A DNA stretch of 24,000 nt, from assembly GCA_002381185.1 (NCBI GenBank), contig DFOA01000041.1, positions 57,994-81,993 of the forward strand. Reading direction: 5' to 3'. This stretch comes from Firmicutes bacterium UBA3553. GTDB taxonomy: Bacteria; Bacillota; Clostridia; Tissierellales; Sedimentibacteraceae. Positions 7,124 through 23,840 of this stretch are shown here, piece by piece; the first letter of the stretch is position 1; the number at the start of each line of letters is the position of its first letter. A model generated the notes under the pieces. The model saw nothing but the letters and a program-made list of their open reading frames with translations, ran no database searches and was not told the origin of the DNA. Both the position numbers and the translations under genes were made by a program.

Positions 7124-8119
7124 ATGGAAAATAATTATACTTTAGAAGTCAATAATGTCCTTAAATATTATACGCAGAGGGTAAAAGAAAAAAAACAATT
7201 CGGCGCTGTAAAAAAAACCGTCAAGGCAGTTGATGGCATAAGCTTCAAATTAGAGGCCGGAGAAGTAATAGGTGTCATCGGCGAATCCGGATGCGGAAAG
7301 TCCACATTGGCTAAGCTTCTGACAAAACTTGAACAGCCTACTCAGGGTGAAATTTTAATTAACGGAGAATCCTCTGATGAAATGATAAAAAAGGACAGAC
7401 TTAAGTACAAGAGAACGATTCAGATGGTTTTTCAAAATCCTTTTGACACATTTGACCCCAGAAATACCATAGAGAAGGTAATTGTTGAAACCTTAAAGCT
7501 GCACGGCATAGGTAAAACATATGATGAGAGAATATCAACAGCCGTCAAGGCAATGGAGGAAGTAGGGTTAACTCCCGCGGAAGATTATTTGCACAGGTTT
7601 CCTCATGAACTGTCGGGAGGGCAGCTTCAGCGCATTTCAATATTGAGGGCAATGCTGTTAAAACCAAAATTTCTCATAGCAGATGAGCCGGTTTCAATGC
7701 TTGATGTCTCGGTAAGAGCAGATATAATCAGGATGCTTCAGGATTTGGTCCATGACAGCAATGCAGCATTGATATTTATAAGTCATGATATAAATACCAC
7801 AAGATATATATCGGATAAAATAGTCGTAATGTATCTAGGGAGAATAGTTGAGTCAGGAACAACTGATTATGTATTACACAACCCTGTGCATCCCTATACA
7901 AAGACATTGATATCCAACTGCGCATCCATCGACATGGATGAAAAGACAAATATAATAAAGATAACAGGAGAACCCCCAACTCCCATCGATAACGGACCGG
8001 GCTGTTATTTTGCACCAAGATGTTATATGAAAAAAGACATATGTTTTAAAGAATATCCTAAACAAACAGTCATAGAAAATAATCATTTTGCTTCATGTCA
8101 TTTTATTAATGATAATTGA
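7124..8119 (+). CDS. Peptide ABC transporter ATP-binding protein, OppF/DppF-like
   Basis: Walker A GESGCGKST, signature LSGGQLQRI, Walker B LIADEPVSMLD, H-loop ISHD and a C-terminal VHPYTKTLI region with a cysteine cluster. Confidence 0.9.
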   Translation: MENNYTLEVNNVLKYYTQRVKEKKQFGAVKKTVKAVDGISFKLEAGEVIGVIGESGCGKSTLAKLLTKLEQPTQGEILINGESSDEMIKKDRLKYKRTIQMVFQNPFDTFDPRNTIEKVIVETLKLHGIGKTYDERISTAVKAMEEVGLTPAEDYLHRFPHELSGGQLQRISILRAMLLKPKFLIADEPVSMLDVSVRADIIRMLQDLVHDSNAALIFISHDINTTRYISDKIVVMYLGRIVESGTTDYVLHNPVHPYTKTLISNCASIDMDEKTNIIKITGEPPTPIDNGPGCYFAPRCYMKKDICFKEYPKQTVIENNHFASCHFINDN

Positions 8120-11557: not shown

Positions 11558-11572
11558 ATTACATTTTACCTT
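11551..11572. terminator. Short hairpin spanning both stop codons of the convergent DUF2249 / YkvI genes (possible bidirectional terminator)
   Basis: AAGGTAAA (11551-11558) / TTTACCTT (11565-11572) with a 6-nt loop, flanked by AAAAAAAT upstream and TAAATTTT downstream. Confidence 0.4.
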
Positions 11573-12641
11573 TAAATTTTGCAGATATTTTACCATTGAA
11601 TCTGGTATGGATAAAACATATCAGAAGTACAATTCCGCCATAACCGACCAACGGGTATAAATATTTGACCAAATTTGAAAATCCGAACTGACTTGCCAAT
11701 AAAGCAGCTATAGTAGATACTGCAACAATTATAATACTATTTAATGAAAATTTTTGTATGTCAGTGATTCTGGATGCAAATCCGTATAAAGAACCTACTG
11801 CGGTTGTATAAATTTCAGCTATCAGAACCACAGCATATGCCAACTGTACGGGGTAGGATATTCTTCCCGCCACATAAATCATGGGGACTTCAAGATTAGC
11901 AATTTCTGAAATGCTTCCGCTCAGTGCAAGATAAATCATAACAGACCCTAATCCAAGCCCGAGTCCTCCCAGGATAGCCCCTTTTTTTACAGCCTCTTTG
12001 TCTTTTGCTTCGGATCCAAGCGGCCCCAGCACCGCGACGGAAAGTATAATGTTGTATGATACATACAAGACCGAAGACAAAAACCAGTTGCTTATGATTC
12101 TGTTCTCTGCGAAGAGTGCTGATGAAGATGTAAAATCAGGCGGGGAAACGGAAATTGAAAATAAACTTGTTCCGATGACTGCCGTTAACAGAAATGGAAC
12201 CACAAAGCTGATAGAATTAATTACACCGTTTATGCCTGTTAATACAGTTACCGCTGTCAGAACTGCCATGAGTATATTTCCTATCAGGCGCGGTAAATTA
12301 AATTGCTGGGTGAACAAAGCACCGGTGCCGGCTATCATTGCCGTAAAAGATCCGAAAAGAAAGAAAGTAATCAGTGAGTCTATTATCGTACCCATTATCC
12401 TGCTGCTGGAATGCCTTATGATTTCAACATGGGAACGGGCACCCAGCTTTTTTCCTAAATCCATTACAATATATCCGAACAATATAAACATTATTGTGGT
12501 AACTAATATACCTGCCAGCCCCATTAGCCCGAACCTTGTAAAAAACTGCAGTATTTCCTGTCCTGTTGCGAAACCGGCTCCGACTATTGTTCCTATGTAT
12601 GTTGCTGCAACCTTCAGCGCTGAGACCTTTTTTTTGCTCAT
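11559..12641 (-). CDS. YkvI-family polytopic membrane protein (putative transporter of the amino-acid/spore-germination permease type)
   Basis: The N-terminus MSKKKVSALKVAATYIGTIVGAGFATGQEILQFF is characteristic of YkvI-like proteins, and there are about 10-11 hydrophobic segments. The start was set to the ATG at 12641 (AAAGGA 9 nt upstream). The track start at 12671 has no RBS. Confidence 0.6.
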   Translation of the reverse strand: MSKKKVSALKVAATYIGTIVGAGFATGQEILQFFTRFGLMGLAGILVTTIMFILFGYIVMDLGKKLGARSHVEIIRHSSSRIMGTIIDSLITFFLFGSFTAMIAGTGALFTQQFNLPRLIGNILMAVLTAVTVLTGINGVINSISFVVPFLLTAVIGTSLFSISVSPPDFTSSSALFAENRIISNWFLSSVLYVSYNIILSVAVLGPLGSEAKDKEAVKKGAILGGLGLGLGSVMIYLALSGSISEIANLEVPMIYVAGRISYPVQLAYAVVLIAEIYTTAVGSLYGFASRITDIQKFSLNSIIIVAVSTIAALLASQFGFSNLVKYLYPLVGYGGIVLLICFIHTRFNGKISAKFKGKM

Positions 12642-12747
12642 CCTGCCACATCCTTTCAACCTATATAACATTGTATAAGGTATAAGGATTTTTATGACTT
12701 AACGTACAGCAAAAGATACGCATGCCGGATATTATCATGTCTGAAAT

Positions 12748-14245: not shown

Positions 14246-15415
14246 TTGACATCTTCTGTCATAGATATGAGAAGCACTTCAATTATTATAGTGATAGGGC
14301 ATATATTAGCAGTTGTACTGCTGGCTTCATATGCCATACAACCCAAAAGCAAAAATGAACCTGTGAAAATATATCTTCAAGCTAAGTTAATTCAGTGCAT
14401 TGGCTGGATAATGCTTTTACTGAGGGGCTATATATCTGACATTCTCTCCATTTCAGTTGCCAATTCCGTATTTTTTATCGGCGTAGCGGCTGAAATGACT
14501 GCTTACCTGGTTCTAAGCGGCAATTATAATAAAAGAATAAAACAATATAATTATATTTTCATTAGCGGCTATATCCTTATTTTTAATCTTGTGACAGTAT
14601 TTTATAATATTGAGAGCATAAGAGTATTAACAGCATCATTATTAACCTCATTATTGATGATATATCCCACCTATAAAATTATTAGTGAAAAAAATTCCTC
14701 TGTGCTGCAAAAGATAATGTGTGTTTTTTTAATTATAACGATTATTATATGGCTTGTTCGGGCGTATCTGGCTGTCACTATACCATATTCCTTGAATTTC
14801 TTATTTACTGATTATCCTAATACATGGATATTTTTTGCAGTGTCCATAGTTATACTTACAGGAAGTACAGGATTTATACTCCTGGCTAAGGAAAAGCAGG
14901 ACGCAGAAATAAAAAAAGCCGCATGCTTTGATGAACTTACCGATATATTGAACCGAAGGACCTTCATACTGCGTTTCAAAGAATCTATTTCAATGTTGCT
15001 AAGTAAACATGAATTTCTTTCGTTTTTACTTATAGATATTGATGATTTTAAAAATGTAAATGATACCCACGGACATTATGTGGGAGACATTGTACTGAAA
15101 TCCTTTGCGGATATAATAAAAAGCAATCTGAGGGAATACGATTTGTTCGGAAGATACGGAGGTGAAGAATTTGCCGTTATGCTTCCCGGAGCTGATGAAA
15201 AAGAATCACTTGAAATAGCCGAAAGATTAAGAAAGGCAGTAGAAAATTCCTCGCCTGATTTTACTCAGGAAATAAAGTACACTGTAAGTATAGGTGCCGT
15301 GACTATTGCCGCGGATAGGGATATCAATTTAGAGATGCTTTACAAATTAAGCGACAAAGCACTCTACAAGGCTAAGGAGCAAGGCAAGAATCAGGTTGTC
15401 GGAATCAAAGTTTAA
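14246..15415 (+). CDS. Membrane-anchored diguanylate cyclase (multi-pass N-terminal domain + GGDEF domain)
   Basis: About 210 aa of 6-7 hydrophobic segments, followed by DELTDILNRR, IDIDDFKNVNDTHGH, RYGGEEFAV (GGEEF at 15158-15172), the I-site REYD five residues upstream (15131-15142) and DKALYKAKEQGKNQV. The TTG at 14246 lies 8 nt after GAAGGG. An alternative start is the ATG at 14267. Confidence 0.9.
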   Translation: MTSSVIDMRSTSIIIVIGHILAVVLLASYAIQPKSKNEPVKIYLQAKLIQCIGWIMLLLRGYISDILSISVANSVFFIGVAAEMTAYLVLSGNYNKRIKQYNYIFISGYILIFNLVTVFYNIESIRVLTASLLTSLLMIYPTYKIISEKNSSVLQKIMCVFLIITIIIWLVRAYLAVTIPYSLNFLFTDYPNTWIFFAVSIVILTGSTGFILLAKEKQDAEIKKAACFDELTDILNRRTFILRFKESISMLLSKHEFLSFLLIDIDDFKNVNDTHGHYVGDIVLKSFADIIKSNLREYDLFGRYGGEEFAVMLPGADEKESLEIAERLRKAVENSSPDFTQEIKYTVSIGAVTIAADRDINLEMLYKLSDKALYKAKEQGKNQVVGIKV

Positions 15416-15458
15416 AGCTACATTAATATTTTCATAATGTTAATGTAGCTTTATTATT
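15414..15458 (+). terminator. Rho-independent terminator after the first GGDEF gene
   Basis: 13-bp perfect stem AAAGCTACATTAA (15414-15426) / TTAATGTAGCTTT (15440-15452) with a 13-nt loop, followed by ATTATTT. It overlaps the stop codon. Confidence 0.7.
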
Positions 15459-15592: not shown

Positions 15593-16045
15593 ATGTTGCA
15601 TCAACCATTATATTCATTGTTTATTAGAATGATTCCTGAAGCTTTTTTGATAATGCATTCAATTTGTCTGCTGACTGCTTCACATAAAGATTTAAAAAAA
15701 ATATCAACTGCTGCTGTTCTAGGAGGAATTGGAGTATATATAGTAAGGCTGATGCCAATTCATTTTGGGGTACATACAATTTTGTCAGTTATGATTGATA
15801 TACTATTGGTTGTAAAAATACTTGATATTAATATACAAAAAGCTATATCAGGAACACTAATATCAATAATTATAATTTTTATGTCTGATATAATTCTTTT
15901 TGCAATTTATACAAATGTTTTTCACTTTTCATCCGAAGTAATTGCGGGACAAACAATTGTATCTGTTATTTCAGGAATTCCTTCCCTGATTATATTTTAT
16001 TTTATAATACGAGCAGTTGTATATGTAAAGGAAAAGAGGTTTTGA
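15593..16045 (+). CDS. Small polytopic membrane protein (150 aa, about 5 TM), unknown function, first gene of the agr-type operon
   Basis: RBS AGGAG 7 nt upstream and five hydrophobic segments by eye. The stop TGA (16043-16045) lies 1 nt before the agrB GTG, indicating translational coupling. I recognise no catalytic motif. Confidence 0.7.
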   Translation: MLHQPLYSLFIRMIPEAFLIMHSICLLTASHKDLKKISTAAVLGGIGVYIVRLMPIHFGVHTILSVMIDILLVVKILDINIQKAISGTLISIIIIFMSDIILFAIYTNVFHFSSEVIAGQTIVSVISGIPSLIIFYFIIRAVVYVKEKRF

Positions 16046-16046
16046 T

Positions 16047-16712
16047 GTGAGCAGAATTGAAATGTTTTCAAAATTTATTGCTTCTAAAATCTCAAAAAAT
16101 TTGTCTGTTGACAATGAGCAAGAAGAAGTTATTGCTTATGGTGCCTTTGCATTGATACAAACAATGGTATCCATATTGGCCGTTGCTGTCTTCGGCATTA
16201 TTTTTGATGTGCTGCTGGAATCACTGCTTATTTCTTTTTCGGCAGCGACCTTAAGAAAATTTTCGGGAGGAGCACATGCCACTGCACCAATGAGCTGTGC
16301 ATTAATTGGCATGTTTGTGTTTGGAGTACAAGCTCTTTTTGTTAAGCATTTTATTATAAATTTTAGTTTAATACATTTATTATTAATTATGATTGCAGCA
16401 TTTACATTTGTTTTTTATATTATGTTTAAATACAGTCCGGTGGGTTCTGCTAATAAACCGTTAAAAAAAGAAGCAGTCAGGAGACGCTTAAAAAGGCAGT
16501 CGATAAGCTATGTTATTTTCTTATTGCTGGTAAATGTTGTATTGACAGCTATATATATTAAAACAAAAAACATTTGTTTGGTTTCTGCGGCATCTTGCAT
16601 CACAGCAGGAATTGTATGGCAATCTGTTACTTTGGTATCTCTGGGACATTTAATTATAGAAACTCTGGATAAGGCATTAAGAGGTACAATTTCAGCAAGG
16701 AGGACAAACTAA
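16047..16712 (+). CDS. agrB: AgrB-family accessory gene regulator B (membrane cysteine endopeptidase that processes and cyclises AgrD)
   Basis: The hallmark LRKFSGGAH(77)ATAPMSC(84), with His and Cys 7 residues apart as in the S. aureus AgrB catalytic pair. There are about 5-6 TM segments and a basic loop KPLKKEAVRRRLKRQS. The GTG start lies 7 nt after AAGAGG, and the gene is followed directly by an AgrD-type ORF. Confidence 0.9.
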   Translation: MSRIEMFSKFIASKISKNLSVDNEQEEVIAYGAFALIQTMVSILAVAVFGIIFDVLLESLLISFSAATLRKFSGGAHATAPMSCALIGMFVFGVQALFVKHFIINFSLIHLLLIMIAAFTFVFYIMFKYSPVGSANKPLKKEAVRRRLKRQSISYVIFLLLVNVVLTAIYIKTKNICLVSAASCITAGIVWQSVTLVSLGHLIIETLDKALRGTISARRTN

Positions 16713-16849
16713 TGAAAAAAAACTTAGTATTAAAGGTTATGACTTTGGCTGCAGGTATGTTGACATTTTTAGCAACAACTACTACAGCTTCTGCATGCTG
16801 GTGGGGAATTTATCAGCCGGAAGAACCGAAATCATTAAGAGAAGAGTAA
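16712..16849 (+). CDS. agrD: AgrD-type autoinducing peptide precursor, 45 aa (not in the supplied ORF track)
   Basis: My translation is MKKNLVLKVMTLAAGMLTFLATTTTASACWWGIYQPEEPKSLREE. It has an amphipathic/hydrophobic leader, a Cys followed by 4 residues (CWWGI), and an acidic tail QPEEPKSLREE almost identical to the C. perfringens AgrD tail as I recall it (..SACLWFTHQPEEPKSLRDE). Strong SD AAGGAGGA (16697-16704) 7 nt upstream. The ATG overlaps the agrB stop (TAATG). Confidence 0.9.
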   Translation: MKKNLVLKVMTLAAGMLTFLATTTTASACWWGIYQPEEPKSLREE

Positions 16850-16850
16850 A

Positions 16851-16875
16851 AGGAGGTCTTTAATGACCTCTTTTT
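16851..16875 (+). terminator. Weak hairpin / leaky terminator between agrD and the GGDEF-HD-GYP gene
   Basis: GAGGTC (16853-16858) / GACCTC (16865-16870) with a 6-nt loop, then TTTTT (16871-16875). The stem is only 6 bp, so partial read-through is plausible. Confidence 0.45.
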
Positions 16876-16895
16876 AGGTATCGCAAAGGTGAAAT

Positions 16896-18593
16896 ATGAA
16901 TAAATTTGATATAAACAGAAAGCAGAAATTATATGAAATGATATCGGTTTTAAAGCTGATATCATTGATGATATGTGGAATTGTAATTTTTGCGCAATAT
17001 CCGGCAGATGTTTTCAATGTTCAATTTAACTTGGCAAAAAACGGAGGAATTATTTTCTTCAATTTTGTATGTGTGGCTGTATTTGTTTTAATAAGTGAAG
17101 GATGGTTATATTCTGTAAAAGAAAGTCAAGCTATTTCAAAAATTAATCTGAGAGGGCTAATAGAAAATTTTATACTGATATTTATATATACAACACTGAT
17201 ATTTATATCCGGATTTCATGAAAGCCAATATAAATTTTTATATTTATTTATTATTATTGCAAACACCATCCAATATGGTATGAAAATAGGTATAGCCACC
17301 GCAATTTTAAATTCTCTTACAATTTTAGCAATTGATATCATAGGAGTTGAGTACGGTATTATTAACAAGTATTTCGAATCAGACCTGGTGATGTCGGGCG
17401 TGTTTATTATAGTGGCATGGATGTTAGGCTACTATGCAAATTTAGAAAATGAATACAGAGATAAGGCTGTGCATTTAGTGAATGTAGACGAATTAACCGG
17501 TGTTTACAATCACAGGTATTTTCAGAACATTCTATCAGAACATATAGATAAAGCGTCGGAGAATAATAAAAGTATATTTCTGCTGTTCATAGACATAGAT
17601 CATTTCAAATATTACAACGATCTTTACGGACATAGTGCAGGAGATGTTGTGCTGGGCAGTATTGGCGAGGTTTTAAAGAAAAATGTAAGAGAACAAGATG
17701 TAGTCGCACGATACGGTGGTGAAGAATTTGCTGTAATATTGCCTGATGTCTCAGAAGAGGAGGCCTTCAATATAGGAAACAGATTGAGGGATGCAGTTGA
17801 AAACACTTATTTTGATGGTGAAGAAAACCAGCCTAACGGTAAAATAACCATATCAGTAGGAGTATCCTCCTATCCTTTAAAGGCAAAAACTAAAAAGGAA
17901 CTTATTAATACCGCAGATGATGCGCTGTACCGGGCTAAGTTTTTTAATAAGAACAGGGTTGAAAGCTATTATTCAGTGTTGGAAGAGTTAAAATCAGATA
18001 TTGATGAACAGCATATTGATTTGATAAGTTCAATAAAAACATTAATAAGCGTCATCAATGCAAAAGACCGGTATACATATGCCCATACAGACAGAGTTGT
18101 AATTTACTGCGAATTAATGAGTCATCACTTAGGGCTGGGCGATAACGACAAGAAGCTTTTACGATACGGTGCGTATCTGCACGATATAGGCAAAATACAA
18201 ATATCAAAAGATATATTAATTAAGAGAACCAGATTAAGTGATGAGGAGTGGAAGATTCTTAAAGAGCATCCGGCAAATGGTGTGGATATAATAAAGACAG
18301 TATCTGCACTCAAGGATGTTTGTCCCATTATACTTCATCATCACGAGCGTTATGATGGAACTGGGTATCCTGAAGGCCTAAAGGGTGAAGAAATTCCTTT
18401 TCTGGTAAGAATTTTAAGCATTGCTGACAGTTTTGACGCCATGACTTCCAACAGGCCTTACAGTCAAAGGAAAAGCTATGATGAGGCTGTGCAGGAAATT
18501 AAAAACTGCGGCGGATCTCAGTTTGATCTGGAAATTGTAAATGAATTTATTAAAATGCTGGATGAAAATAAAAATAAACTGGATTTTATTTAA
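16896..18593 (+). CDS. Membrane-anchored bifunctional c-di-GMP enzyme: about 6 TM sensor region + GGDEF diguanylate cyclase + HD-GYP phosphodiesterase
   Basis: About 185 aa of hydrophobic segments. The GGDEF domain shows DELTGVYNHRYF, IDIDHFKYYNDLYGH, RYGGEEFAV (17715-17729), I-site REQD and DDALYRAKFFNKNRV. The HD-GYP domain shows YTYAHTDRV, GAYLHDIGK and HHHERYDGTGYP (18336-18371). Confidence 0.92.
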   Translation: MNKFDINRKQKLYEMISVLKLISLMICGIVIFAQYPADVFNVQFNLAKNGGIIFFNFVCVAVFVLISEGWLYSVKESQAISKINLRGLIENFILIFIYTTLIFISGFHESQYKFLYLFIIIANTIQYGMKIGIATAILNSLTILAIDIIGVEYGIINKYFESDLVMSGVFIIVAWMLGYYANLENEYRDKAVHLVNVDELTGVYNHRYFQNILSEHIDKASENNKSIFLLFIDIDHFKYYNDLYGHSAGDVVLGSIGEVLKKNVREQDVVARYGGEEFAVILPDVSEEEAFNIGNRLRDAVENTYFDGEENQPNGKITISVGVSSYPLKAKTKKELINTADDALYRAKFFNKNRVESYYSVLEELKSDIDEQHIDLISSIKTLISVINAKDRYTYAHTDRVVIYCELMSHHLGLGDNDKKLLRYGAYLHDIGKIQISKDILIKRTRLSDEEWKILKEHPANGVDIIKTVSALKDVCPIILHHHERYDGTGYPEGLKGEEIPFLVRILSIADSFDAMTSNRPYSQRKSYDEAVQEIKNCGGSQFDLEIVNEFIKMLDENKNKLDFI

Positions 18594-20669: not shown

Positions 20670-20886
20670 TAATCATTTTCTTGAACCTCGGGTGAAATAC
20701 TAATATTTTCAGATGGTGGAAATTACTTTGTCATCTGACATATTTAGCTCTTTGACTTTTAGTGTCATATGTGTAAAAATAAATAAATGCAATGAGAACG
20801 TCAGCCGTCTCTCATATTACATTGTGGTTTTAACACAGATATTCAATATTTCTATTGAATATAAGACATTAAAGGAGGACTTTAAA

Positions 20887-21813
20887 ATGATTAAAAAAAG
20901 ATTATCGTTAATATTGTCGGTAGTGATGATTACGGCATTTACAGTGCCAAGTGTTGCATTTGGTGCTGATTATACTGATCATTGGGCCGAAGCTACTATA
21001 CAGGAATGGTTTAACAATGAAAAAATATCAGGTTATGAAGATGGATCATTTAAGCCTGAAAACTCTATAACAAGAGCAGAGTTCATGACAATGGTCAACA
21101 GTGCATATGATTTCGAGGAGCTGGCAGACATAAGCTATGCCGACGCTGACTCTGAAGAATGGTATTATGCAGAGATTCAAAAAGCAGTTAAGGCCGGATA
21201 TATTGTAGGTGACGATGAGGATACTGTAAGACCTGCTGATGAAATTACCAGACAGGAAGTTGCCGTTGTTATTACAAGACTGAATGAACTTGAGCAAAAT
21301 GCTGACGTATCTGTGTTTGCCGATAGAGATGAAATAGCAGACTGGGCAGCCGGATATGCAGGAGCAGTTTTAAAGTCCGGATACATGATAGGCGATGACA
21401 ACAAAAATTTCAATCCCACAAATGATATAACCAGAGCTGAGGCATTGGTTACTTTGGACAGGTCAATGAAAGACAAGGCTGAAGATGCGGAAATAAATGA
21501 ACTTTCAGTTGAAGGCGCGGAATTAGAACAGGCATTTGATGCAGAAAGAACGACATACAGTGCCATTGCGGCAAATGATGTGACAGAAGTTACAATAACA
21601 GCAGATGTTGCTGAAGATGCAGAAGTCAGCTTCTCTTCCAATGTAAAAGATTCAGATATTAAAGTTACAACAGCATCAGCTATAGAAGGCGGCGTTGTAT
21701 ATACAGCTGATGCAGCTTTATCTGATTCAGAAGATACAGTTGTAAACATAACAGTGTCACAAGAAGGATTAAAAGACAGAGTTTACACAATTACGTTCAG
21801 TAAAGAAGAATAA
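20887..21813 (+). CDS. Secreted S-layer-homology (3x SLH) cell-surface protein with a C-terminal cadherin-like beta-sandwich-type domain
   Basis: Signal peptide MIKKRLSLILSVVMITAFTVPSVAFG. Three SLH repeats each end in ITRAEF / ITRQEV / ITRAEA. The C-terminal region ELSVEGAELEQAFDAERTTYSA...VTITA...VYTITFSK is the cadherin-like type. AAAGGAGGA RBS. The upstream 58 codons in the track ORF lack an RBS and a signal peptide. Confidence 0.85.
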   Translation: MIKKRLSLILSVVMITAFTVPSVAFGADYTDHWAEATIQEWFNNEKISGYEDGSFKPENSITRAEFMTMVNSAYDFEELADISYADADSEEWYYAEIQKAVKAGYIVGDDEDTVRPADEITRQEVAVVITRLNELEQNADVSVFADRDEIADWAAGYAGAVLKSGYMIGDDNKNFNPTNDITRAEALVTLDRSMKDKAEDAEINELSVEGAELEQAFDAERTTYSAIAANDVTEVTITADVAEDAEVSFSSNVKDSDIKVTTASAIEGGVVYTADAALSDSEDTVVNITVSQEGLKDRVYTITFSKEE

Positions 21814-23044: not shown

Positions 23045-23108
23045 TTTAATGGATAATAGTAAAAAATGTGAATACAATAATCCTAAAATCCATTTCAGGA
23101 AGGCAATT

Positions 23109-23840
23109 ATGAGCGCGGTAGAAAGATCATATTCATTTTTATATAAAAAGGTTGTAAAAGCTGTAAATCCATTAAAAAAGAAGGTTATAAAAACCGAATG
23201 CATAGTCCATAAATTTATAAACAATCAGGCTATTGAAATACTTAAAAACGATAGGCACGATGAAATTTATGGCGAACTTTCAAAATATATAGATAATATT
23301 AACGAAGGTGCAGTATGGGCAGATCAGGATTTTAAAAGCAGTAATCACTTTTTTAATCCAAATACAAAAAAGGGGTTATATGGAAACAGTAATGCAAAAA
23401 TAGAGTGCATTGCTTATTATAAACGTGCAATAAAAGAATATTTGCAGGGAGATGTGAAGACAGCTATGTTTTATTTAGGTGCAGCCTGCCATTTGATTCA
23501 GGATTTGACCATACCCCAGCATGCAAACGTGGAGCTTCTCCATAGTCACAGGGCTTATGAAAACTGGGTTATTAAGATGCACAACAAACAGCAGAAATTC
23601 AAGGTGCAAAAAGGAGGAATATATCTTAATTCAATAGAAGGATATATTTATTTAAACACTAAATATGCTCTGGAAACTCACAGGAAATATTCCTGTATTA
23701 AAAACGAACACATGAGATTCCATAAAACCACATCAGTTGTATTGGTTATGGCGCAGAAAACCACGGCAGGATTAATGTATAACTTTTTCTATGACATGCA
23801 AAGATTGAAAGCAATAAAAGCATACAAGGAGAATAAGTAA
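23109..23840 (+). CDS. Zinc-dependent phospholipase C family protein (alpha-toxin N-domain-like), no signal peptide
   Basis: A ligand-like pattern VHKF ... WADQDF ... SNHFFNP ... ACHLIQDLTIPQHA (H-x3-D-x5-H) ... HRAYE. The ATG at 23109 lies 5 nt after GGAAGG. The track ATG at 23049 abuts the upstream terminator and has no RBS. Confidence 0.65.
   Translation: MSAVERSYSFLYKKVVKAVNPLKKKVIKTECIVHKFINNQAIEILKNDRHDEIYGELSKYIDNINEGAVWADQDFKSSNHFFNPNTKKGLYGNSNAKIECIAYYKRAIKEYLQGDVKTAMFYLGAACHLIQDLTIPQHANVELLHSHRAYENWVIKMHNKQQKFKVQKGGIYLNSIEGYIYLNTKYALETHRKYSCIKNEHMRFHKTTSVVLVMAQKTTAGLMYNFFYDMQRLKAIKAYKENK

Follow-up and report, generated by a model that had tools for sequence, protein, structure and literature searches.

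The Agr system of Clostridium perfringens (CPE1563-CPE1562-agrB-agrD) consists of hypothetical membrane open reading frames (ORFs), agrB, and a short agrD, the last being an ORF of about 135 bp that was first missed by annotation (PMC2706048); its macrocyclic signal is CLWFT (PMC12312760, PMC6534674), and neither an AgrC nor an AgrA is encoded beside it. Which protein senses the peptide in clostridia that possess agrBD without agrCA has been a standing question since 2009, with VirS still being described as unproven. Here we describe a locus of the same build in a 24,000-nucleotide stretch of contig DFOA01000041.1 (positions 57,994 to 81,993 of the forward strand; assembly GCA_002381185.1, Firmicutes bacterium UBA3553), to which entire stretch we refer as the window. 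The element in question is a 45-codon ORF, proposed as agrD in an initial annotation, along with the genes around it: the membrane-protein gene orf150, agrB, and a gene encoding a 565-residue membrane protein with GGDEF and HD-GYP domains.

The window contains all the parts of the C. perfringens-type "agrBD-only" cassette, namely an orf150-like ORF, a QPEEPK tail in the precursor, and the GGDEF/HD-GYP gene. Compared with C. perfringens strain v20 (locus L073 of the survey described below), the window orf150 is 28% identical over 135 residues to the hypothetical ORF directly upstream of agrB, AgrB is 38% identical, AgrD 51%, and the membrane protein, the same GGDEF/HD-GYP type being encoded directly downstream in L073, 51% over 560 residues; the two precursors share the register ...SA-C-x4-[Y/H]QPEEPKSLR[D/E]E. 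The differences from C. perfringens are a ring of CWWGI instead of CLWFT, a Tyr in place of His after the ring, and a single upstream ORF instead of two, the second one in L073 encoding a DUF5317 protein; furthermore, the host is no pathogen, but an uncultured Bacillota species from metagenomes.

With the agrBDCA system of Staphylococcus aureus the locus has in common a tripartite precursor whose ring is a Cys plus the four following residues, an AgrB with His77 and Cys84, a hypervariable core between conserved flanks, and specificity regions that appear to co-diversify. In contrast to S. aureus, the window precursor is not matched by the Pfam AgrD model, its product is predicted to be tailless, the tail carries the QPEEPK motif typical of clostridia, and neither agrC nor agrA follows agrD. 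Neither a histidine kinase nor a LytTR domain turned up in the sizeable ORFs of the 24-kb window, so that the locus does not qualify as a canonical agrBDCA.

The agrD frame and its operon

Translation of the 45-codon ORF gave MKKNLVLKVMTLAAGMLTFLATTTTASACWWGIYQPEEPKSLREE followed by a stop, which result is identical to the hand translation in the initial annotation, all the elements listed there also being in place (Table 1). The start codon overlaps the TAA stop of the 221-codon agrB by one base (TAATG), and the strong Shine-Dalgarno sequence ascribed to the 3' end of agrB is indeed found there. The peptide matches the NCBIfam model TIGR04223 (AgrD family cyclic lactone autoinducer peptide) with 47.9 bits and E = 9.8e-13 against a curated cutoff of 19, residues 8-43 being aligned with model positions 2-37, so that the AgrD architecture claimed for it is borne out; the adjoining AgrB likewise matches its Pfam family. 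Since TIGR04223 was matched and the Pfam AgrD model was not—no Pfam family recognized the peptide, even at E ≤ 10—we place it in the clostridial rather than the staphylococcal AgrD branch. The leader, the Cys plus four residues, and the charged tail correspond to the three-region build of AgrD, with its conserved Pro, that is described in the literature (PMC6534674).

For comparison we surveyed related loci by scanning one genome per species with a degenerate DNA pattern back-translated from C-x5-QPEEPK, which procedure yielded at least 120 loci, about 85 of them encoding AgrD-like peptides. All the survey counts given here—of loci, precursors, cores, and adjacencies—describe a sample among the matches listed and are no census. 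Adjacencies were counted in 80 non-redundant loci, of which those with a contig reaching far enough were informative (78 for agrB and 75 on the downstream side); 98 distinct precursors were aligned on the ring Cys, and 46 cassette orthologues were aligned for the conservation of the AgrB and sensor motifs. A genome scan with back-translated AgrB peptides gave no confirmed relative. AgrB was encoded directly upstream of agrD in 72 of the 78 informative loci, and G74, G75, H77, and C84 of AgrB were invariant in all 46 orthologues, His77 and Cys84 being the catalytic positions of the S. aureus AgrB.

Relative to its close relatives, agrD differs by 11-14 synonymous and 5-8 non-synonymous codons, the latter falling at residues 4, 6, 14, 31, 33, and 41, which positions belong to the first part of the leader, to the ring, and to a single variable site of the tail; the synonymous excess therefore shows the frame to be under purifying selection. 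On these sequence grounds, the 45-codon ORF does encode an AgrD precursor, one of the C. perfringens type, and is the predicted source of a signal peptide. That it should be a chance open frame or a decaying, unexpressed remnant we regard as improbable in the extreme: the ORF is short and lies in AT-rich DNA, and a relative, L135, has kept agrD despite the deletion of agrB, meaning that agrD can persist without its processing enzyme; yet against such a view stand the match to a curated model, the intact AgrB with its catalytic residues, the Shine-Dalgarno sequence and start/stop overlap, the preponderance of synonymous changes, and the occurrence of the identical sequence in many independent assemblies. 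A different small secreted peptide merely resembling AgrD, for example a bacteriocin or a signal peptide of the lipoprotein type, would likewise have a hydrophobic N-terminus with an AxA-like site; we nevertheless consider this alternative very improbable in view of the specific fit to the AgrD model, the translational coupling to AgrB, and the gap-free alignment to an experimentally studied AgrD.

The ORF had been reported as unannotated, which statement holds for the first ORF track only: NCBI, JGI/IMG, ENA, and Logan assemblies already list the exact peptide among their called gene products. It was present on 17 contigs in a cluster look-up, and 24 contigs were read in a locus look-up; all these contigs derive from a single species, as part of metagenome-assembled genomes (MAGs) or of metagenomes, and have the same synteny (e.g., GCA_002386685.1). 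Twenty AgrD homologues were found in a collection of 5.8 billion proteins, two close ones bearing the JGI label "cyclic lactone autoinducer peptide." Among labelled relatives, a Tissierellia MAG (AgrB 64% identical) and a Sedimentibacter MAG (AgrD 89% identical) stand closest.

Between orf150, agrB, and agrD there is almost no intergenic spacing. The hairpin directly following agrD has a folding energy of -18.5 kcal/mol (z = -4.4; none of 200 shuffled sequences folded as well), its stem being kept and its loop varying in the relatives L135 and L138, and it is probably an intrinsic terminator or an attenuator. The three genes very probably form an operon, from 15593 to 16849, that is bracketed by hairpin terminators and encodes the precursor of a cyclic autoinducing peptide. 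An Rfam scan of the window matched no RNA family, the cyclic di-GMP (c-di-GMP) riboswitch included.

The gene composition of L135 itself (Logan SRR27258020) deserves description. Its positions 7640-7990, corresponding to 16560-16900 of the window, contain an intact agrD 89% identical to the window gene, with a ring of CWFGI. L135 has kept the Shine-Dalgarno sequence, a remnant of about 100 nt of the agrB 3' end, and the terminator hairpin, but has lost the sensor gene along with orf150 and agrB; its agrD stands between homologues of the window genes at 11559-12671 and 20713-21813. This agrD is either an orphan signal gene with no local processing or one served by an AgrB encoded elsewhere.

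Table 1. Positions of the features discussed, numbered from the first base of the window; aa, amino acids
Feature	Position	Strand	Description
agrD	16712..16849	+	45-aa precursor: leader 1-28, ring 29-33, YQPEEPKSLREE recognition tail 34-45
Shine-Dalgarno sequence of agrD	16697..16704	+	AAGGAGGA, read from sequence; inside agrB 3' end, 7 nt before ATG
Predicted thiolactone ring codons	16796..16810	+	Cys29-Trp-Trp-Gly-Ile33, in gap-free register with C. perfringens CLWFT
agrB	16047..16712	+	221-aa predicted membrane endopeptidase/cyclase for AgrD processing; Pfam PF04647, E = 1.5e-38
orf150	15593..16045	+	150-aa polytopic membrane protein, first gene of the operon; hydrophobic segments seen
Hairpin plus U-run	16847..16876	+	directly 3' of agrD stop; RNA fold
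Sensor-GGDEF-HD-GYP gene	16896..18593	+	565 aa: N-terminal multi-helix domain (residues 1-185), GGDEF, HD-GYP
Terminator-like hairpin	15413..15453	+	18-pair stem and T-rich tail; ends upstream GGDEF gene, 5' boundary of agr operon
Upstream diguanylate cyclase gene	14246..15415	+	membrane protein, about six hydrophobic segments plus GGDEF (GGEEF)
Phospholipase C domain gene	23049..23840	+	zinc-dependent phospholipase C domain (PF00882)

The predicted ring and the mature signal

The C. perfringens AgrD, which in strain v20 reads MKKLNKNLLTVFAALTTVIATTVATSA-CLWFT-HQPEEPKSLRDE, scores 52.3 bits on TIGR04223 in the same register, with the Cys at model position 23 in both peptides; and the end of the leader, the ring, and the tail of the window AgrD align to it without gaps. 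The initial annotation had quoted the C. perfringens tail and placed the ring at Cys29-Ile33 by analogy: the quoted tail turned out to be exact in the v20 genome, and because of that agreement together with the common model register we consider the ring assignment sound. The alignment to clostridial AgrD sequences that had been recommended as a check comprises the 98 precursors.

In that alignment the residues around the ring that are nearly invariant, and that were not imposed by the search pattern, are A(-8), S(-2) at 94%, A(-1) at 99%, the Cys, and L(+13). The entropy was of about 0-0.5 bits at -2, -1, the Cys, and +13 versus about 3 bits at ring positions 2, 4, and 5, which are the most variable columns of the precursor, and the 98 precursors displayed 77 distinct cores. 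At ring position 3 Trp predominates (62% of the precursors), and at position 2 it shares the first rank with Phe. The core CWWGI, which had been described as a distinct and very hydrophobic pherotype, is unique to this species and a few metagenome relatives among the precursors compared, but other species carry Trp-Trp cores as well (CWWAM, CWWYF, CWWCA, CWWMM, and CWWGL); CWWGI is thus a new variant whose hydrophobic Trp-Trp character is typical for the family.

As to processing, analogy with the Agr biochemistry of S. aureus and C. perfringens suggests the following route. The hydrophobic leader would anchor the precursor at the membrane; AgrB would recognize the conserved YQPEEPKSLREE tail and cut after Ile33; the thiol of Cys29 would take the new carboxyl group, a thiolactone thus being formed; and the leader would be removed between the Ala and the Cys of a nearly invariant small-Ser-Ala-Cys site, so as to release the tailless, five-residue cyclo(CWWGI). 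By the same analogy, that tailless thiolactone is most likely the mature signal, the C. perfringens ring CLWFT having been described as likely tailless (PMC7300355, PMC12312760); further support comes from the small-Ser-Ala-Cys motif because of its resemblance to an AxA signal-peptidase site. For a predicted conversion by AgrB, the invariant H77 and C84 provide indirect support. The computed mass of cyclo(CWWGI) is M = 645.2733 ([M+H]+ = 646.2806), and the [M+H]+ values calculated for the forms extended by A, SA, and ASA are 717.318, 804.350, and 875.387, respectively.

Those extended forms correspond to an alternative in which the AgrD is real and the mature signal retains A, SA, or ASA, or is trimmed otherwise—an outcome that we deem unlikely, with some room left for it. 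The autoinducing peptides (AIPs) of S. aureus do bear N-terminal tails (PMC7300355), and an early proposal for C. perfringens was TSACLWFT (PMC2688746); nevertheless, the conserved Ser and Ala fit a cleavage right before the Cys, and the later work on C. perfringens prefers the tailless ring (PMC7300355, PMC12312760).

Returning to the AgrD precursor and its tailless product as the preferred interpretation, three points have to be set against it. The ring size and the missing N-terminal tail would follow from the analogy with a single species; the host is a species known solely from MAGs and metagenome contigs; and the invariance of QPEEPK among the genome matches was imposed by the search pattern. 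The motif is also kept in the metagenome homologues that were found independently, save for two with QPVEPK and one with QPEVPK.

Three further observations concern the precursors of related species. First, the residue at +12 from the ring Cys, just after QPEEPK, is a Cys in 39% of the precursors (QPEEPKCLRE) and a Ser in the window, which second tail Cys is without obvious explanation. Second, Clostridium sporogenes (L126) has SSA-CVWCV-YQPEEPK and C. tepidum (L018) SSA-CYWCV-YQPEEPK, where the family register starts the ring at the first Cys (CYWCV); the published AIP-1 of Clostridium botulinum is ACYW[CVYQP], with the ring beginning at the second Cys (PMC12312760, PMC3673130), and as judged from the C. 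perfringens alignment that published assignment may be shifted. Third, the Bacillota MAG BP5.bin74 (L065:4276-4684) contains two tandem agrD genes, both with the core CSWST and the tail FQPEEPKCLRK, which are followed by a kinase-type sensor; a tblastn search detected no clear AgrB at the expected position.

A membrane protein encoded beside agrD as candidate receptor

The gene following agrD resembles agrC in that its product begins with a polytopic membrane domain—some six or seven helices in residues 1-185—but differs from it in the output, which is GGDEF plus HD-GYP (Pfam GGDEF, 1.7e-47; HD_5, 3.8e-39) with no kinase. The REQD I-site, GGEEF, HD, and GYP motifs are intact, the enzymatic motifs being retained in 44-45 of the 46 orthologues, and the AlphaFold2 model has a predicted local distance difference test score (pLDDT) of 88. 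Three lines of evidence connect the membrane domain with agrBD.

The first is synteny. In 72 of the 75 informative loci (96%), that of C. perfringens included, a gene beginning with this sensor domain lies on the same strand no more than 600 nt after agrD, with a median gap of 77 nt in the surveyed loci. The four-gene cassette was found in varied genomic neighbourhoods of many genera, the named species including C. perfringens, C. sporogenes, C. tertium, C. tepidum, and Tepidibacter.

The second is the exchange of output domains. An exhaustive HMMER search with sensor residues 1-185 over 1.84 billion proteins—an earlier word-indexed protein search had given 3 matches—revealed a narrow family of 118 representatives, with the domain followed by GGDEF and HD-GYP (24 representatives), by GGDEF (31, mostly truncated), or by HisKA and HATPase_c, sometimes with PAS (27), or else as fragments (37). 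The kinase version (PAS-HisKA-HATPase_c) occupies the AgrC position in six agrD loci, including those of C. beijerinckii (L094) and C. prolinivorans (L115), in the latter of which no response regulator comes after the kinase. In Alkaliphilus metalliredigens QYMF, whose AgrD ends in ...TTSA-CAWGV-YQPKEPKLLRK, a kinase with the sensor domain is encoded about 1 kb from an orf150-agrB-agrD operon, and there is no GGDEF gene. The output is swapped while the membrane domain stays, and it is the latter domain that is linked to agrBD.

As to its affiliation, the window domain matched no Pfam model, even at E ≤ 10. Kinase-fused homologues (34-38% identical) scored 573.9 and 561.4 bits on NF047874, "MASE3 domain-containing sensor histidine kinase" (cutoff 560), in alignments that cover the membrane region, and 8 of 61 sensor relatives matched Pfam 6TM_PilS. 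These kinase relatives are of the HisKA type and, in contrast to AgrC, match that MASE3 model and not the AgrC model; a distant relative, P0118, has an AgrC-type GHKL domain, the staphylococcal AgrC model being matched by it weakly and below the cutoff (E = 5.5e-4).

The third line, a further likeness to AgrC, is a divergence of the N-terminal part of the sensor in step with the ring. We examined a clade of eight close Clostridium relatives that have nearly identical AgrD flanks and four rings (CWWAM four times, CFWAM twice, and CIWVM and CYWLM once each), expressing the identity of each segment relative to that of the enzymatic half in same-ring (n = 7) and different-ring pairs (n = 21). Sensor residues 1-100 fell from 0.97 in the former to 0.67 in the latter, with residues 101-185 at 0.94 in both; AgrB residues 1-110 went from 0.97 to 0.89, and orf150 residues 76-150 from 0.90 to 0.79. 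At the DNA level, L129 and L110 share about 93% identity in the region downstream of the cassette, as against 59-75% in the initial 300 nt of the sensor gene and 67-73% over the orf150 3' end and the agrB 5' end; the same-ring pair L025/L096 displays no such trough. In the window's own clade, where all rings differ, the gradient recurs, the identities being 46-61% for sensor residues 1-100, 62-82% for residues 101-185, and 77-88% for the enzymatic half. This ring-linked divergence resembles that of S. aureus, where the agrB-agrD-agrC segment is hypervariable.

We propose, as one further step, that binding of the thiolactone to the MASE3-like membrane domain of the 565-residue protein would switch the GGDEF/HD-GYP module fused to it, such that cell density would be translated straight into altered c-di-GMP without the involvement of a two-component system; the product of orf150 may be a partner in specificity. 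That the cyclic peptide has its cognate receptor in this protein, which might act jointly with orf150, is a candidate reading to which we grant a chance slightly short of even; backed as it is by synteny, domain swapping, and ring-linked divergence, the case for a receptor comes to stand at roughly even odds. The AgrD-derived signal could alternatively be real and be sensed by an unlinked two-component system, VirS/VirR-like or AgrC/AgrA-like, the GGDEF/HD-GYP protein then being a co-located regulator or a co-regulated output with some other input, which alternative is a plausible one to which we would concede a chance somewhat below even. VirS/VirR has been proposed, though not firmly proven, as the AIP sensor of C. 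perfringens (PMC6534674, PMC7300355), a species having the same cassette; between agrD and the sensor gene lies a terminator-like hairpin; and MASE-type domains are without an established ligand, the kinase relatives being filed simply under the MASE3 name cited above. An unlinked receptor, however, sits poorly with an adjacency that persists through many genera and differing neighbourhoods, with the retention of the membrane domain in the AgrC position when outputs swap, and with a ring-linked divergence that within the sensor is confined to residues 1-100.

The VirS/VirR proposal and the hairpin weigh against the receptor proposal, as do three more results. No solved AgrC-like structure matched the sensor model. 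The co-diversification comprises some three ring changes in eight species, with pairs that are not independent. Finally, a partial-Mantel comparison of sensor with ring similarity over 46 species gave a significant r = 0.40, which test we rejected as non-discriminating because AgrB, orf150, and the AgrD leader were equally significant, the sensor thus not being separable from them.

If the 565-residue protein were the receptor, its nearest functional parallel would be the RpfR of Burkholderia, in which BDSF-RpfR system a quorum signal is read by a c-di-GMP turnover protein containing GGDEF, without a two-component relay (PMC13220807). RpfR differs in that it resides in the cytoplasm, has a PAS-GGDEF-EAL build, and takes a fatty acid as its ligand, as opposed to a membrane domain, a peptide thiolactone, and an HD-GYP hydrolase, and its sensing part is not homologous to the window sensor. 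No paper naming agrD with GGDEF, or agrBD with HD-GYP, describes the cassette in the searchable literature, to which this statement is limited, an earlier mention of the adjacency being possible.

A second arrangement was noted in Clostridium psychrophilum (GCA_018861705.1), which has a full cassette with a GGDEF/HD-GYP sensor and the ring CWWCA (L145 and L116 are of this same genome) and also a separate pair consisting of a kinase-type sensor and an orf150-like gene without agrBD. That second sensor pair could be an additional or an eavesdropping receptor.

Neighbouring genes and meaning for the family

The product of orf150 matched neither Pfam, even at E ≤ 10, nor NCBIfam, and has a counterpart in 60 of the 69 surveyed loci whose contig reaches far enough. 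Genes of the orf150 family flank kinase-type sensors in three of four loci that lack agrBD and, since the two are paired there too, orf150 and the sensor constitute a conserved pair in its own right. A paralogy of orf150 with the sensor domain or with AgrB was considered and rejected, the hhalign probabilities being of 1-3%.

Directly upstream of the agr operon lies a gene for a second membrane diguanylate cyclase, and since the sensor-GGDEF/HD-GYP gene is on its downstream side the operon is flanked on both sides by c-di-GMP genes. The upstream gene is absent in L006 and, in other species, does not belong to the conserved cassette. A gene for a protein with a zinc-dependent phospholipase C domain of the C. 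perfringens alpha-toxin domain family is found some 6 kb downstream of agrD, which gene stays syntenic with agrD in the relatives L135 and L138; the alpha-toxin gene of C. perfringens itself is under Agr control (PMC2706048).

In L136:1-14300 (Logan SRR27258120) the whole cassette is located inside a type IV pilus-like cluster with prepilin N-methyl proteins, a VWA protein, and a PilM-like protein. This setting is suggestive in that it fits the PilS-like 6TM matches of the sensor relatives. In clostridia, c-di-GMP controls pili.

Taken by itself, the ORF extends a large family of clostridial precursors, catalogued before, by a single ring variant, CWWGI, from an uncultured anaerobe, which is of use for annotation and unsurprising; the interest lies in the missing receptor genes and in the conserved genes around agrD, on neither of which the initial annotation had remarked. 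The adjacency in about 96% of the loci, the swapping of outputs, and the ring-linked first 100 residues together provide a concrete candidate for the receptor. If that proposal is true, the sensor family, with its c-di-GMP or kinase outputs, would supply the receptors for the "agrBD-only" loci of clostridia, those of C. perfringens and of the C. botulinum/sporogenes group among them; peptide quorum sensing would be tied directly to c-di-GMP, and thereby to biofilm formation, motility, and pili in Gram-positive anaerobes; and C. perfringens would offer a new anti-virulence target.

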